Positions 31,165 through 43,460 of a stretch of DNA of 64,000 nucleotides are shown here, in pieces (positions within the stretch are counted from its first letter, which is position 1; each line of letters opens with the position of its first letter). This DNA is from a phage. The stretch is taken from the sequence record PV357172.2; one strand, 5' to 3'. The position numbers and the translations under genes were made by a program. The notes under the pieces are model-generated. The model did no database searches. It was not told where the DNA came from and was given only the letters and a program-made list of their open reading frames with translations.

Positions 31165-31866
31165 ATGAAAGTAAAACCATTTGGTATGCTAGATATTGAA
31201 TCTCTAGGAACTCCAGGAGATTGTGGTACTACTCATATCGTAATGCCTTCTTTCGCTTTTGTGGCTATGCATGGGGTTGATAAAGACCCTGATCTAGTAT
31301 TTGTTACTTTGGATGTGCAGGATCAGCTTAATTCTGGTGCCAAAGTTACAGCATCTACTCTAGCATTCTGGATGGATCAAGCTAAAAATAGCCCGTCTGC
31401 TATCCACATTATGGAAGCTATGAAGGAACGTAATCCAAAACTGATTGCCTTCCAAAATGGTAAACATCATTGCACTAATAAATTAGGCTCAAACTATGCT
31501 GCCTTCTCTATGGCTCAAAATATTATGGAGTTGGCTCTAGGCGAAAATGCTTTGTATTATGGCAATGGCCCAGAGTTTGATATGACTATCTACTCTGCAA
31601 ATACGTTCCATGCTGGAACCAATGAAGAGGTAGTTCCGTGGAAATTCTGGAATTTGGGCAATGTTCGATCTCTTCGTAATCTCTGGATGCAAGCTGGATA
31701 CAGTTATAAGGCTCTAGAGACCGAAGGTATTAGCTGGGCAATAGCTAAAATGGAGAAGATGGACACTATTCGTTATGGGATATATCCGGTTAAGCACGAC
31801 CCAGCATTCGATGCCTTAGTTGAGAGCTATTGTGTTGCGGCTATGATCGAAAAAATGAAAATTTGA
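31165..31866 (+). CDS. putative DEDDh-family 3'-5' exonuclease
   Basis: Exo I-like MLDIESLG and Exo III-like HDPAFDALVESY motifs. Confidence 0.5.
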   Translation: MKVKPFGMLDIESLGTPGDCGTTHIVMPSFAFVAMHGVDKDPDLVFVTLDVQDQLNSGAKVTASTLAFWMDQAKNSPSAIHIMEAMKERNPKLIAFQNGKHHCTNKLGSNYAAFSMAQNIMELALGENALYYGNGPEFDMTIYSANTFHAGTNEEVVPWKFWNLGNVRSLRNLWMQAGYSYKALETEGISWAIAKMEKMDTIRYGIYPVKHDPAFDALVESYCVAAMIEKMKI

Positions 31867-32171: not shown

Positions 32172-32810
32172 ATGACTACTCGTATTTCTAAAACTCGCGA
32201 TCTGGCAACTATCAAATCTCTGGAAGCTAAAATCCGTAAAGCTACTGAACAACAGCTTCTGATCGCTGTTGGTGAAGGTAAGGATAAAAATAAGGTTGTA
32301 GTTGGCGCTGCAATCGAAGTAGACGATCTGTCTGCTCGTATTAAGGCAGATTTCCAATCTCTCCTAGATATGATGTCCCAGCGTGATCGTATCAAAGCTG
32401 CTCTGATTAAGAGCAATGCGGAAACAGTAGTTGAGATTGGTTCTCGTAAAATGACTGTTGCAGAAGCAATTGAAGCTAAGCGTTCTATGGAGCTTAAAGC
32501 TCAGTTGCTGGCTAATATGCGTAAGCAGTTCCATGCCGCTACGGTTAAGTTTAATACGCAGAAAGCACAGTTTGATGCTAAATATGAGCGTTTGCAGGAT
32601 AGCATGGCTACCCGCGATAAGAAAACTTCCGAAGATGAAGTTAAAATGCAGCTCAACCTGCTGGAACTCAAGAATACTCCATTCTTGATTGATCCGCTGG
32701 AGCTGGAGAAGCTGATCAAGCAGCACGACGAAGAATATCAGGACTTTGCAACTAATGTTGACTTTGTTCTGTCTGAGTCTAATGCCTCTACTTTCATTGA
32801 AGTAGAGTAA
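32172..32810 (+). CDS. coiled-coil protein of unknown function (212 aa)
   Basis: ORF track; strong codon bias; heptad-like sequence. Confidence 0.5.
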   Translation: MTTRISKTRDLATIKSLEAKIRKATEQQLLIAVGEGKDKNKVVVGAAIEVDDLSARIKADFQSLLDMMSQRDRIKAALIKSNAETVVEIGSRKMTVAEAIEAKRSMELKAQLLANMRKQFHAATVKFNTQKAQFDAKYERLQDSMATRDKKTSEDEVKMQLNLLELKNTPFLIDPLELEKLIKQHDEEYQDFATNVDFVLSESNASTFIEVE

Positions 32811-33252
32811 TAATTTAAAAGCTAGTAAATCGGTAGACGAAAGCCCAAGCATCTTACCTCGCAGCAGCGGTTGAAATACGAGGTTAAATAAGACCGCTGA
32901 CCATACTATAAAGTATAATCTATTGGAGATTATGTTTATTACATCAGACATTTAATCTGACACGTAAAAACAAAGAGTCGTTGATATTACCGACACAACT
33001 TCAAAGATCAACATTTAAGTATGAAAGCTGAAAAGTTTAAAGAACTCAAACTTCTAAACTTCTAAAGCTAAAAGATGCAAAGTATTCGTTGATGATTCAA
33101 ACCCTAGATCAAAGGTACATGGCTCATAAGATATGGCCTGTGGCGCCTCTAGGCTGTTTATCGGTTTACTAGTTTCACAATTTAAAAATGTATTTGCTAA
33201 TCTACTAAATTATATGTATAATATATTTTTAAATTGATGAAACGAGGCTATT

Positions 33253-34074
33253 ATGGGTAAATTACAAAAACAAATACTACCACATATAGATTATATTCGA
33301 GAAATTATAGAGTATAATCCTTATACTGGTAAATTATTTTATAAGCCTAATAAATACAAGAATAAAACTTGGCACACCCTATATGCTGGGAGAGAAATAT
33401 GTAGTAAGAACTCTGATGGGTATATCAGAGTTAGTTTGCTCTTAGATAATAAACCCACAATTATTTATGGACACCGAATAGCGTGGTTGCTCCATTATGG
33501 TGAAGAGCCTCCTTATATGATCGACCATATAAATACCATACCGTGGGATAACAGAATTGTTAATCTAAGAGAGACAAATTTTAAGTTAAATAGGATTAAT
33601 ACTAATAAAACCGTAGGTGTAGAACTCCTCCCCGAGGGTTTTGTGTATAGCATTACATTAGGTGGAAAGTTTTTCGTATCTCCTGGCTTCACCACTTTCG
33701 AACAAGCTAAAGGGGAAAGAGAAAAACTAGTAAATGGTTTATGTAATGCAGAAATTGGGAAGCAGACCAATATTCTAATAGACGATGTTAGAGATCTACC
33801 TGAAATGTCCATTATTTGTCGTACAGTTATAGGTGCGCTGGAACTATCAGATATGTTTAGTTTTACTGGTTCCTACCTATTTATGGACTCAGATCTAGGA
33901 GACCCAGAAGTACAAGGAAAAGACTTATTAGATTATATACTCTTTTTAGGTCAAAGACCTTTGAAAGTAGTTCTAGTAACATCCAACCCTGTTGACGCAG
34001 AGTACATGAGAGGTACTCTTACGTCTTATGGTTATCGAGAAAATCCCAATAGGTTAGAATATGACCTATTTTAA
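33253..34074 (+). CDS. HNH endonuclease with C-terminal extension
   Basis: HNH motif YGHRIAWLLHYGEEPPYMIDHINTIPWDNRIVNL in N-terminal half. Confidence 0.65.
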   Translation: MGKLQKQILPHIDYIREIIEYNPYTGKLFYKPNKYKNKTWHTLYAGREICSKNSDGYIRVSLLLDNKPTIIYGHRIAWLLHYGEEPPYMIDHINTIPWDNRIVNLRETNFKLNRINTNKTVGVELLPEGFVYSITLGGKFFVSPGFTTFEQAKGEREKLVNGLCNAEIGKQTNILIDDVRDLPEMSIICRTVIGALELSDMFSFTGSYLFMDSDLGDPEVQGKDLLDYILFLGQRPLKVVLVTSNPVDAEYMRGTLTSYGYRENPNRLEYDLF

Positions 34075-34605: not shown

Positions 34606-34776
34606 TGAAGAACTTGATCGTCATTGGTGTTAACACTCGCGGTATTCGTACTACGAAAACTATTAAAACTTCTAACGTTGCTGAAATCACTACGAACCCT
34701 AAAAAGTTTGATTTCGCCAAAGTCTCAGCAGTTATGACGGAGCAATCTTTTAACCAAGCGTTAGGACTGAAATAAT
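34606..34776 (+). CDS. small protein (about 56 aa)
   Basis: Below track threshold; ATG at 34606 directly after promoter module and GAGAGGAAG RBS. Confidence 0.4.
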
Positions 34777-35218
34777 GGAAGAGAATATTTTAGATGTTTT
34801 GCGTAGAGCTTTGCAGGATTCTAAGTTTAATGGTTCTGATAAAGAAGTCGCTAAAAGCTATCAGACCATAATCGGGGATCTTCAGCGTATTGATAAAGAT
34901 TTCATCACTTCTGAACAATTTGTGTCTTATCTCAAAGCTCAACTAAAAAGCATTAACCAGATGAAAGCTAAACTTCATGGTCAAGATCTTGATAGTTATA
35001 GCTTGCAGTCCGCTCAGTATGAATACATTCTAAATAAGTGGTTGCAGGAGTATCTGCCTCCTCAGTTATCTGATACTGAGATTCGTAAATACTTTGCAGA
35101 ATTAGTTAAGCTAAACCCTGGAATTACAAAAGGTATGCTGATGAAAGCGATTAAGGAAGAATTTCCTGGGCGTTATGATGGTGGTACTGCTGCTCAGATT
35201 GCTGGCGAATTTAATTAA
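34775..35218 (+). CDS. hypothetical protein (147 aa)
   Basis: ORF track; ATGA start-stop overlap with preceding small ORF. Confidence 0.5.
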   Translation: MEENILDVLRRALQDSKFNGSDKEVAKSYQTIIGDLQRIDKDFITSEQFVSYLKAQLKSINQMKAKLHGQDLDSYSLQSAQYEYILNKWLQEYLPPQLSDTEIRKYFAELVKLNPGITKGMLMKAIKEEFPGRYDGGTAAQIAGEFN

Positions 35219-35478
35219 AAATTTACTTGCTAAATGCTTATAAATTCTGTATAATATATTCATAAATTAGGGAACAGCGAGCCGATTACGCTGAGTGCAG
35301 AATCCCAACCGGAGCGCATTGAATAGAGTCGGTGGGTTAGTTGTAAAACTAGTACACAGGGGGCGGCAATCCCGGTTAGTGGCTAGAACGTGTAAAATGA
35401 GGCGTCTGAAACCTCTCCCCTAAACTCTTCTCTAATTTATAAATAGTGGGGTGTGGAAATCACTTATGTAGTAACACT

Positions 35479-35550
35479 GCCGTCCTAGTATAATTGGTAT
35501 TATCAAGCCGTAACTGGTGGAAGATGTAGGTTCGAATCCTACGGTCGGTA
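35479..35550 (+). tRNA. tRNA-like element (possibly degenerate; anticodon not resolved)
   Basis: T-arm GTAGG-TTCGAAT-CCTAC and a 7-bp acceptor with one mismatch; anticodon stem does not fold cleanly. Confidence 0.3.
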
Positions 35551-36052
35551 AGAACTGGATAACTGATGCTTTTAACGTAAAAGCTTCCGAGGTTAGTTGC
35601 GCACTGCCTAAACCACGCGGTAGTTGGTTCCAGACTAACCAACCAGTCTGCTGAATAGTTTTATTACGATTTAACTATGCCCAGGCTAAAGAAGAACTTT
35701 AGAAGGTATTCTAGGATAGTGAAGTTCTTTCTCCATATCGGAGTAGTTTTTCAAGCTATCCACAAAGTGGGAAATGCTGACATGAGAGATGTCACTAATG
35801 GTGCACAATAGCACAGGTAATTCGCGATAACCCCTGTTGAGTAGCAGCAAAAGGCGGGAAGTCATGACCCCAAGCCTAACCGAGTCCTCAATATACCGCA
35901 GGACATAACCACTAAGTCCCCCTGACTTAAACTGGAAAATAATAGACGTTACTGTATTTTGTCTTGAAATACTTAATGAGTGAGACTTATGACTCTCCCG
36001 GTATCGTCTGTATTTTTAAGAGTTTTTACGAGAGTTCTTAAAAATACTTAAA

Positions 36053-39588: not shown

Positions 39589-39936
39589 TTGAAGATGATG
39601 AAAAAAGAAGCGTTCTACACTGTCCCAGCAATTAATCTGCTCGGTACTGTACTATTTCAGATTAAGTTCTACCTGCGAGACGACTACACTGAAGTGGTAA
39701 ACGCTATTGTACCTGAGTTCTTCGTAAATAATTTCCAAAAGGACTTTAAGTTCTTTATTGATGATGTTTACGATGGTGTGGTTGATCCGGCAGTAGCTCC
39801 AGCTATATACAATGTATTTAATTCTCTGCCAGATCTAGATTTTGATCTAGGACTTATTGAGTCTGGTGAGATTATCTGGGCACTTAATGTTCCAGTGACT
39901 GGATTCCCTGGTTGGCTGCAAGGTTACGAACTCTAA
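39589..39936 (+). CDS. hypothetical protein (115 aa)
   Basis: ORF track. Confidence 0.45.
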   Translation: MKMMKKEAFYTVPAINLLGTVLFQIKFYLRDDYTEVVNAIVPEFFVNNFQKDFKFFIDDVYDGVVDPAVAPAIYNVFNSLPDLDFDLGLIESGEIIWALNVPVTGFPGWLQGYEL

Positions 39937-42931: not shown

Positions 42932-43395
42932 ACAGGGTGCTTCAAGCTCTAGATCTTCCAGAGCTCTTTACTATTACCGACCCCTTAATACATCGGTATA
43001 TGGAAAAGTATAATGAAATCTCTGGTAAAAAAGGGAAACTAAAATCCTCAGAATTTAAGTTCTGTTATAGAATGGCAGCATTAAACCTCTTAAAGTACAA
43101 GAGGGAGCATAAAATCCCTATAACAGAAGGATTTGTCTATGTAATAGGTAGTCCAGCATGGCCTGGACTATATAAGATAGGTATGACAGTAGATGTGAAT
43201 GAAAGACTGTCTAGTTATCAAACATATTCGCCTTATCGTGATTACAAGTTATACCATTTCAGATTCTCCTCGGACAAGAGAAGAACTGAAAAAGCATTAC
43301 ATAACCTTCTGAAGGACTACAAAGTATCAGGAGAATGGTTTGAAGTACCTCTGTTAGACGCCTTCAAACTATTAGTAGAAAATTTGGATTGCTAA
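42922..43395 (+). CDS. T5orf172/GIY-YIG-like domain protein
   Basis: Motif GFVYVIGSPAWPGLYKIGMT...R...E; AAGGAAG RBS. Confidence 0.5.
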   Translation: MLINRVLQALDLPELFTITDPLIHRYMEKYNEISGKKGKLKSSEFKFCYRMAALNLLKYKREHKIPITEGFVYVIGSPAWPGLYKIGMTVDVNERLSSYQTYSPYRDYKLYHFRFSSDKRRTEKALHNLLKDYKVSGEWFEVPLLDAFKLLVENLDC

Positions 43396-43460
43396 CTCAA
43401 CTGGATAAGAGTACCGGACCTTTAATCCGTCAGTTCTGGGTTCGAATCCCAGGCAATCCA
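43386..43460 (+). tRNA. tRNA-Lys (anticodon TTT)
   Basis: Perfect acceptor GGATTGC/GCAATCC, anticodon loop CCTTTAA, T-arm CTGGG-TTCGAAT-CCCAG, CCA; 5' end overlaps last codons of upstream CDS. Confidence 0.65.

Follow-up and report, generated by a model that had tools for sequence, protein, structure and literature searches.

In the 64,000-nucleotide stretch of phage DNA analysed here (hereafter the window; sequence record PV357172.2), positions 32811 to 33252 form an intergenic block between a homologue of the phage T5 gene T5.085 upstream (32172 to 32810) and a gene for a protein of 273 amino acids (aa) downstream (33253 to 34074). The question raised by this locus is whether the block is spacer or has a product of its own. 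The DNA is that of a T5-like phage (Tequintavirus), with 96–97% identity to phages Shivani, H8, and SHSML-45 over the stretch containing the locus. An earlier note, made from the sequence alone, described 32811 to 33180 as a region without a credible open reading frame (ORF), with tandem repeats and a hairpin-rich segment, which could encode a small RNA or be a recombination hotspot flanking the insertion of a gene with an HNH domain. Comparison with homologous loci indicates that this span is the gene for a structured RNA of ~357 nucleotides (nt) on the + strand, not spacer, and the reported span almost exactly matches the RNA proper, 32819 to 33175. The suggestion of a small RNA was sound insofar as a structured RNA on the + strand is strongly supported by comparison, but the molecule is large and multidomain and is tied to the upstream gene, not to the HNH gene. 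All coordinates below are window positions on the + strand unless stated otherwise.

Conservation and folding of the intergenic block

When a 481-bp query across the gap was searched, 470 phage records were matched, 437 of them over at least 80% of the query and mostly at 90–99% identity; the 440-bp intergenic block is present at an identity of at least 90% in about 426 of the 470. When 29 distinct close relatives were compared, polymorphism was seen in 42 of 390 columns (10.8%) at 32802 to 33191, as against 171 of 630 (27%) in the upstream coding sequence, and the first part of the block is more uniform still, with 5 variable columns of 120 at 32802 to 32921. By these counts, the gap is the most conserved sequence of its neighbourhood.

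No + strand ORF of at least 30 aa was found within 32811 to 33132, and the single long ORF is antisense (32364 to 32951) and overlaps the T5.085 homologue, both in agreement with the earlier note. Missed small protein-coding genes, such as the seven-codon ORF at 32932 to 32955, were considered and given next to negligible probability. This ORF has an ATG with a Shine-Dalgarno-like GGAG upstream, but the substitutions seen in relatives are non-synonymous and pair up in a hairpin, the ORF is absent from two of the homologous loci (L213 and L129), and stop codons are dense in all frames.

The + strand of 32811 to 33185 has a predicted minimum free energy (MFE) of −98.4 kcal/mol, compared with −67.9 ± 4.6 kcal/mol in dinucleotide shuffles (z = −6.67), and its centroid and MFE structures are nearly identical. 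The − strand gives a z score of −3.29.

A closed, pseudoknotted RNA supported by covariation

IMG/VR was searched for homologues in two rounds, the first with the upstream protein and the second with aligned relatives of that protein, which yielded 57 loci with protein identities of 28–42%. All of the IMG/VR loci read have an ORF-free gap after the gene and the same layout, and the RNA ranges from 260 to 460 nt across the family. Support for the structure was drawn from covariance models of single domains (roughly 190 positions or fewer) and from raw alignments, not from a full-length covariance model. Heavy compensatory variation is seen in the helices across about 40 divergent homologues.

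The whole element, 32819 to 33175, is bounded by a closing helix, P1, in which the 5′ arm AAGCUAGUAAAUCGGUAGACG (32819 to 32839) pairs with the 3′ arm UGUUUAUCGGUUUACUAGUUU (33155 to 33175) over 21 bp, including G·U pairs. The sequence of P1 differs in nearly every lineage yet stays complementary, and its inner ends, ...CGA and GGCUG-U, are conserved. In a gap-free alignment of 37 distinct arm pairs, pairing is 95.1%, compared with 58.2% when shuffled and about 32% when slid; two-sided (compensatory) changes occur at 13 of 15 pairs, and the terminal G·U is kept in 36 of the 37 sequences. The covariation score of 0.958 (versus 0.224) was reached by none of 500 shuffles. Wobble pairs are distributed asymmetrically, with 86 G·U against 6 A·C in P1 and 16 against 6 in stem S2 of the pseudoknot described below. 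This asymmetry settles the strand: the functional molecule is an RNA with the same orientation as the upstream gene, and it is considered very probable that the block specifies a real, functional structured RNA.

These data bear directly on the possibility of a DNA-level element, that is, a replication origin, a nick site, a recombination site or a target of HNH-linked homing. The region is AT-rich and repetitive, and two HNH genes have inserted adjacent to it, but such an element is extremely improbable: a covarying helix links sites about 320 nt apart, the excess of G·U over A·C makes sense only for a + strand transcript, and the element is present with or without HNH. A T5 nick site was rejected as a candidate, with major nick 3 (32.6%) at 39660 to 39667 of AY587007 and the element at about 43059 to 43425 of that record, ~3.4 kb away. 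The recombination hotspot flanking the HNH insertion did not hold up either, as the segment is found in 437 phage records and the HNH version in only 27, and T5 has the RNA without HNH. The earlier note had proposed comparing related phages for joint presence or absence of the segment and the HNH gene; the segment is kept regardless of HNH, which is the outcome that the note itself had named as speaking against an HNH-linked role.

P1 leads into junction J (AAAGCCCAAGCAUCUUA; 32840 to 32856), for which the family consensus, counted from the last two P1 bases, is CGAAAACYnUAAACUUAC. Directly 3′ of J lies an H-type pseudoknot (32857 to 32899), in which S1 pairs CCUCG (32857 to 32861) with CGAGG (32879 to 32883) and S2 pairs CAGCGGU (32865 to 32871) with ACCGCUG (32893 to 32899). 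The arms of S2, CAGCGGT and ACCGCTG in the DNA, are those of the previously reported hairpin-rich segment, which is therefore real and forms the second stem of the pseudoknot. The topology is found at the same position in most of 39 homologues, and a topology-constrained search gave 25.7 compared with 10.2 for shuffles. On the raw MAFFT alignment, 77% of the pseudoknot is paired versus 54%, with double changes in all 7 S2 pairs; on the covariance-model alignment (29 distinct sequences), S2 is 84.6% paired versus 46.6%, with a covariation score of 0.866 versus 0.218. A covariance model of the pseudoknot built on other clades (R1) gives no match in the T5 group because the loops there are expanded relative to those of other clades; the same stems are supported by the T5-group alignment.

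The pseudoknot is followed by a variable region with two hairpins. The first (32944 to 32960; UCAGA CAUUUAA UCUGA) shows several pair types in the T5 group, including the compensatory change A32948C with T32956G among close T5-like phages, and the second (32980 to 32994; GUUGA UAUUA CCGAC) has modest support. An A-rich array, presumably single-stranded, then extends from about 32996 to 33100 in degenerate units of 7–8 nt with a consensus of about GYUNAAA. The 3′ domain (33103 to 33153) is preceded by the conserved UUCAAACC (family consensus UCGAUAAAAUCC) and is enclosed by helix P5, in which CCUAG (33103 to 33107) pairs with CUAGG (33149 to 33153). Within P5 are Pb (33113 to 33116 with 33145 to 33148), which covaries in the T5 group, and the hairpin Pc (33121 to 33123 with 33136 to 33138, with a 12-nt loop), which covaries both in the T5 group and across the family. 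An invariant GGCUG (33152 to 33156) joins P5 to the 3′ arm of P1.

P5 is 100% paired in a raw full-length alignment of 16 diverse RNAs, which includes the window and two bacterial copies. Its composition was tallied over 35 sequences: the first pair is CG in all 35, the second is CG in 31 and UA in 4, the third is UA in 19, AU in 12, and CG in 3, the fourth is UA in 13, AU in 10, GC in 7, and CG in 4, and the fifth is GC in 31. When P1, S2, P5, and Pc were counted jointly on the same alignment of 16 RNAs, 85.0% of positions were paired, compared with 60.6% when shuffled and at most 45.6% when slid, with double changes in 24 of 30 pairs; none of 500 shuffles matched the observed value on any measure. 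A long-range helix between CAUCUU in J (32850 to 32855) and AAGAUG in the array (33072 to 33077) may also form. This weakly supported candidate shows one compensatory change from U-A to C-G in the T5 group, and cognate J/array duplexes beat non-cognate ones with a permutation p value of about 0.002, uncorrected for relatedness.

On these grounds, a new family, the T5.085-associated RNA, is proposed. It would be defined by a closing helix with the inner ends ...CGA and GGCUG-U, a 5′ H-type pseudoknot, an AAG-periodic A-rich array, a 3′ domain of the form AAAUCC-P5-GGCUG, and a position directly 3′ of a T5.085-family gene; all of these features can be recognized in the sequences of the window and its homologues.

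Linkage to the T5.085-family gene

The RNA directly follows the ~210-aa T5.085-family gene in every closely inspected locus, including those of T5-like phages, Vequintavirinae, Herelleviridae, and jumbo phages. In a survey of 147 loci, a sequence hidden Markov model (HMM) or a strict helix descriptor placed the element directly 3′ of the gene and on the same strand in 125, and neither gave a match on the opposite strand or elsewhere in those loci; the helix descriptor fires in 5 of 282 control segments. Of the 22 loci missed by the automated search, 10 were confirmed to contain the RNA by eye or by alignment, and the remainder are close relatives of positives. The strict descriptor misses bacterial copies with a mismatch in P1, and an iterated HMM of the 3′ domain drifted toward the Lysinibacillus group and lost the T5 group. 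Among the loci examined, no family gene with enough downstream sequence was clearly without the RNA.

The gene was found once per genome in 733 of 50,697 records of cultured phages, and among the matches listed, all genomes are about 98 kb or larger. The carriers among those matches are T5-like phages and phages of Pseudomonas, Vibrio, Bacillus, Klebsiella, Erwinia, Lactococcus, Brevibacillus, and C. difficile. The same RNA comes after the gene, unannotated and usually beside tRNA genes, in Bacillus phage BC-VP, Klebsiella phage KB57, and the Erwinia jumbo phage Ea35-70; Herelleviridae, Vequintavirinae, and Agricanvirus phages thus also have the pair. When GTDB species genomes were scanned for the gene, 113 matches were obtained, mostly in Lysinibacillus, Solibacillus, Sporosarcina, Brevibacillus, Paenibacillus, Bacillus, and Domibacillus, with some in Clostridia. 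In Tepidibacter hydrothermalis and Solibacillus silvestris the gene sits amid unrelated housekeeping genes, and across bacterial genera the sole common neighbour of the RNA is the T5.085-family gene itself. The order in Tepidibacter and Lysinibacillus is promoter, gene, RNA, and intrinsic terminator, which amounts to one self-contained transcription unit. The gene–RNA system is thus common to large lytic phages of Gram-negative and Gram-positive hosts and to many Bacillales chromosomes, and functional coupling of the RNA with the upstream gene appears likely.

Coupling of this kind could be purely local. The RNA starts about 10–70 nt past the stop codon on the same strand (9 nt past it in the window), with no promoter or terminator between, and in the sampled loci neither the gene nor the RNA is seen without the other, all of which would suit a cis-acting 3′ untranslated region that stabilizes, localizes, or autoregulates the mRNA of the T5.085-family gene, for instance by blocking an exonuclease or by acting as a sink that titrates the protein. 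This explanation is nonetheless regarded as fairly unlikely. Within 260–460 nt, the RNA combines four or five covarying helices with a pseudoknot and a periodic array, far more than known 3′ stabilizers need; the end-to-end P1, 21 bp in T5, resembles a stalk for processing or excision; the tRNA genes among which the RNA is found in many phages are excised by RNase P; and conservation is higher in the RNA than in the coding sequence that it would serve. The 3′ arm of P1 is followed within a few nucleotides by a tRNA gene in distant phages and, in bacteria, by an intrinsic terminator.

Several of the loci contain additional features. In Paenibacillus xylaniclasticus, a skipping-rope RNA (RF02924, 54 bits; L132, 5019 to 5147) lies about 80 nt downstream of the element. 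Erwinia phage Ea35-70 (L219) has tRNA-like pieces, a T-arm GGTTCGATTCC and a D-arm AGCTCAGTCGGTTAGAGC, in the variable region of the RNA about 100–175 nt past the stop codon, which suggests an inserted or nested tRNA-like module. An annotated 77-aa antisense “hypothetical protein” overlies the RNA in BC-VP (L217, 1642 to 1875) and is probably a spurious gene call. Some assignments of origin are also questionable: two short “Listeria phage” records (OR848534 and OR847212) with 97% identity to T5-like DNA and a partial “Enterococcus faecalis” protein (P0010) 98% identical to the T5.085 homologue probably reflect contamination or mislabelling, and matches in metagenome-assembled genomes labelled Bathyarchaeia (L175, with nearly the Brevibacillus arrangement) and Pacearchaeota (L188) may be mis-binned.

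The T5.085-family protein

The partner gene in the window (32172 to 32810) encodes 212 aa, predicted to form a helical bundle with small β elements. The protein is 97–100% identical among T5-like phages and 29–45% identical in distant relatives. A word-indexed search gave 245 matches, and clustering at 50% identity gave 3,191 clusters at E ≤ 1e-3 and 2,493 at E ≤ 1e-10; among the matches listed, nearly all are of 200–220 aa. A confident AlphaFold2 model built on a 28-sequence alignment (pLDDT 84, pTM 0.76) consists of long helices and small β elements. No match was found in Pfam, NCBIfam, or PADLOC, no relative in the PDB by sequence or fold (best Foldseek E value 0.2, TM-scores of 0.3 or less), and in BFVD, searched with Foldseek, only uncharacterized phage homologues. 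Several of the weak Foldseek matches are to ClyA-type helical toxins and were treated as noise.

The family is widely labelled “tail fiber protein,” a name that stems from PHROG 1491. The label appears unfounded because the gene sits in the T5 early region and stands alone in the chromosomes of many Bacillales, and the search turned up no support for it.

A self-contained pair that carries a promoter and a terminator of its own, lies in varied genomic settings, and includes a repetitive RNA is reminiscent of toxin–antitoxin or abortive infection systems in which the RNA neutralizes the co-encoded protein, as in the type III logic, and the ClyA-type matches would hint at a membrane-active protein. 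Type III systems (ToxIN, CptIN, and TenpIN) likewise combine a protein gene with a repetitive RNA module and are found in bacteria and phages. Their repeat units, however, are of about 35–45 nt, as against 7 nt here, their gene order is the reverse, and no terminator separates the two parts in the present case. A ToxI-like RNA was therefore rejected: the RNA lies downstream of the gene, its units are ~7 nt, and there is no ToxN/AbiQ-type match in Pfam or PADLOC. The Foldseek matches are non-significant (E > 0.2, TM ≤ 0.3), and the pair is nearly universal in Lysinibacillus, Solibacillus, and Sporosarcina, a distribution that looks vertical and not patchy, all of which makes a toxin–antitoxin-like pair very unlikely.

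The AAG-periodic array and a model for the RNA–protein pair

An A-rich array was seen in every homologue read, with an overall composition of 41% A, 32% U, 14% G, and 13% C. Across 44 RNAs, distances from one AAG to the next peak at 7 nt (54 versus 2.9 expected), 6, 8, and 14 nt (52 versus 2.5), the 7- and 14-nt peaks being about 20-fold over shuffles. The tandem repeats of the earlier note were recovered by Tandem Repeats Finder (TRF) as one array in the DNA, AAACTTCT × 2.4 at 33048 to 33066 with a score of 38, of which the repeat unit given in that note, AACTTCTAA, is a different register. Taken alone this tandem, AAACUUCU × 2.4 in the RNA, is weak, yet it is the most regular part of the longer, degenerate ~7-nt AAG array.

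Evenly spaced NAG triplets are read by the oligomers of TRAP and HutP, the HutP pattern being NAG with a 4-nt spacer, a period of 7 nt. The present array shares with their targets regularly spaced AAG in a single strand, about 7–12 units per RNA, and the period of HutP. It differs in that its units are more degenerate, the partner has no TrpBP or HutP match in Pfam, and the array lies 3′ of the gene in a large closed scaffold, whereas theirs is in a 5′ leader that competes with a terminator. Tested as an NAG-triplet operator, the locus therefore shows the regular spacing but neither a TrpBP or HutP protein nor the 5′-leader position. The operator of T4 gene 32 mRNA offers another parallel, as it has a 5′ pseudoknot followed by unstructured UUAAA/UAAA repeats that are coated cooperatively by gp32, and phage single-stranded DNA-binding proteins typically have a site size of about 7 nt. 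Both RNAs have an H-type pseudoknot and then an A/U-rich repetitive single strand, but the present one is placed after the gene rather than at the ribosome-binding site, has additional closing helices and a 3′ domain, is also found in bacteria, and has a partner that is not an OB-fold single-stranded DNA-binding protein.

The RNA is proposed to work with the protein because the gene and the RNA are co-inherited as a unit in unrelated large phages and in bacterial chromosomes. It would be transcribed together with the upstream T5.085-family gene, as the 3′ part of one transcript, and probably released from the mRNA as a stable RNA; release is suggested by the end-to-end P1 stalk, by the tRNA genes that abut the 3′ end in phages, and by the terminator in bacteria. 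P1 stacked on the P5/Pb/Pc domain, together with the 5′ pseudoknot, would form a rigid scaffold displaying about 100 nt of A-rich single strand, on which several copies of the ~210-aa helical protein could dock side by side on the AAG array, in the manner of TRAP or HutP, to give a defined RNA–protein particle. That a structured RNA works together with the protein of the upstream gene is considered an even proposition, and the specific docking of multiple copies is put forward tentatively, at rather less than an even chance. A widespread new class of RNA–protein particle, in which a helical-bundle protein multimer on the AAG track of a pseudoknotted, end-closed RNA has a function of its own, is possible, with the balance tipping slightly against it. 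If such a particle exists, its role, be it in RNA metabolism, tRNA economy, or host takeover, would be common to phages and spore-forming bacteria.

Several observations count against this model. The AAG triplets vary from array to array both in number (median 7, range 0–11) and in regularity (median of the longest regular run, 4.5); such variability is a poor fit to a ring of fixed stoichiometry. By hand count, the partner protein is not basic, with K + R roughly equal to D + E, and it has no recognizable RNA-binding domain or structural relative in Pfam, PDB, Foldseek, or BFVD searches. All contact between RNA and protein, stoichiometry included, is deduced from co-inheritance, and the strict 3′ adjacency fits a purely cis role in the fate of the mRNA equally well. 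In T5, moreover, a promoter rather than a terminator comes after the RNA, which leaves its 3′ end there undefined.

An array that is single-stranded, 41% A, repetitive, and held between stable structures could also act without the protein, as a decoy or sponge for a host factor such as an A-rich-cleaving toxin or defence nuclease, RNase E/Y, S1, or Hfq. RNA mimics directed against RNA-based toxin systems are known from phages, as in the pseudo-ToxI case, and the T5 neighbourhood is rich in RNA repair and tRNA functions (cREC, an Rv2179c-like exoribonuclease, YqeY, and tRNAs). A decoy would, however, leave unexplained both the obligate linkage to one protein family in hosts that range from E. 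coli and Vibrio to Bacillus and Clostridia and the stand-alone, non-prophage chromosomal copies in many Lysinibacillus, Solibacillus, and Sporosarcina species, and it is judged distinctly unlikely.

Comparison with described RNAs

At gathering scores, an Rfam 15 scan of the window returned only tRNAs, and a scan of 32600 to 33400 at E ≤ 10 returned only noise of at most 17 bits. Nothing was found on the element in ten bacterial loci, and two further elements (L145 and L089) gave only noise at E ≤ 5. The families covered include tmRNA, RNase P RNA, group I and II introns, HEARO, OLE, GOLLD, ROOL, raiA, skipping-rope, 6S, and Y RNA-like RNAs. ARAGORN called 19 tRNAs and no tmRNA in the window, none of them in the RNA region. 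The segment is left blank in both T5 GenBank annotations compared. No description of it was found in the literature on T5 transcriptomics and noncoding RNAs, in the motif surveys of the Breaker laboratory, or in a catalogue of 10,006 viral csRNAs, with whose unnamed IMG/VR candidates some overlap is possible. The RNA is thus unannotated and widely distributed and matches no described RNA family.

The likeness to tmRNA in layout lies in a length of about 360 nt, paired ends, a pseudoknot soon after the 5′ arm, and then an A-rich open stretch. Unlike tmRNA, however, the element has no acceptor/T-arm module and no tag frame, with stops in all frames, and both ARAGORN and Rfam are negative. OLE, GOLLD, ROOL, raiA, and skipping-rope RNAs resemble it in size class (260–460 nt), in multi-helix covarying architecture, and in often lying beside phage tRNA genes, and OLE with OapA, OapB, and OapC illustrates that large ornate RNAs can have dedicated protein partners. 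None of them is matched in Rfam, and strict linkage to one gene and a periodic array are features of the present RNA and not of theirs. An HNH-associated RNA (HEARO or IscB ω-RNA) or an intron was rejected, given an RNA in 437 records against ~27 with the HNH form and flanking genes that are complete. The T5 anti-retron protein Rad was set aside, being the product of a different gene. Likenesses seen by eye, of P1 to the terminal helix of E. coli RNase P RNA, of the central UUCUUU motif to boxA, and of GUUCAAA units to tRNA T-loops, are supported by no model match.

T5 has been a model for 70 years and has been sequenced several times, yet this RNA block has remained blank in both of its annotations that were compared. 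An RNA with strong covariation and no Rfam match, together with an obligate partner that has no relative in Pfam, NCBIfam, or the PDB, points to a whole functional system so far undescribed. The gene–RNA pair is directly testable in E. coli with T5, which would also correct the “tail fiber protein” label. For annotation pipelines, the locus provides an example in which an intergenic gap is the most conserved sequence of its neighbourhood.

Downstream region and neighbouring genes

The remainder of the block, 33180 to 33252, occupies ~75 bp before the HNH gene and is a feature separate from the RNA. It contains a T5-type early promoter (33194 to 33222, + strand; TTGCTA-17-TATAAT) that agrees with the T5 early consensus TTGCTT-N17-18-TATAATA, serves the downstream genes, and is annotated at the homologous place in T5, AKFV33, and T5 ATCC 11303-B5. 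The 273-aa gene that follows (33253 to 34074, + strand) is by Pfam a fusion of HNH_3 (residues 1 to about 170) and cREC_REC (residues 173–257), the HNH domain having been fused in frame at the start of the cREC gene, a homologue of T5.084. Identity of the cREC part to the 105-aa T5.084 is only 51%, although it reaches about 98% in the flanking DNA. Behind the same intergenic block, T5, Elw, and most relatives have a 105-aa cREC gene without HNH. The HNH part is annotated as an “intein” in the record of phage Bas33 (HildyBeyeler), a designation that seems doubtful.

In phages bobsandoy and 1586, a free-standing HNH gene of 538 bp (L006, 1887 to 2424) is inserted at the point corresponding to 33174/33175, directly after the 3′ arm of the RNA and before the promoter. 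It is 37% identical to the HNH_3 domain of the window. Because two related HNH_3 genes have landed independently within 80 bp of each other, both just 3′ of the RNA, the flank of this conserved RNA gene is a recurrent landing site for homing endonucleases.

The wider neighbourhood is centred on RNA functions, with an Rv2179c-like exoribonuclease, cREC, YqeY (34775 to 35218), and a tRNA cluster. The first of these, the homologue of T5.087 (31165 to 31866), has an Rv2179c-like 3′–5′ exoribonuclease domain (PF16473, E = 1e-7) and is called a “metallopeptidase” in many records. The stretch at ~35300 to 36050 is homologous to T5 “RNAX,” which NC_005859 annotates, upstream of tRNA-Arg, as a “stable RNA with unknown functions” of 719 nt. 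Within it, 35479 to 35550 scores 35.5 bits with the Rfam tRNA model and is not called by ARAGORN; AY587007 has a pseudo-tRNA at the corresponding position.

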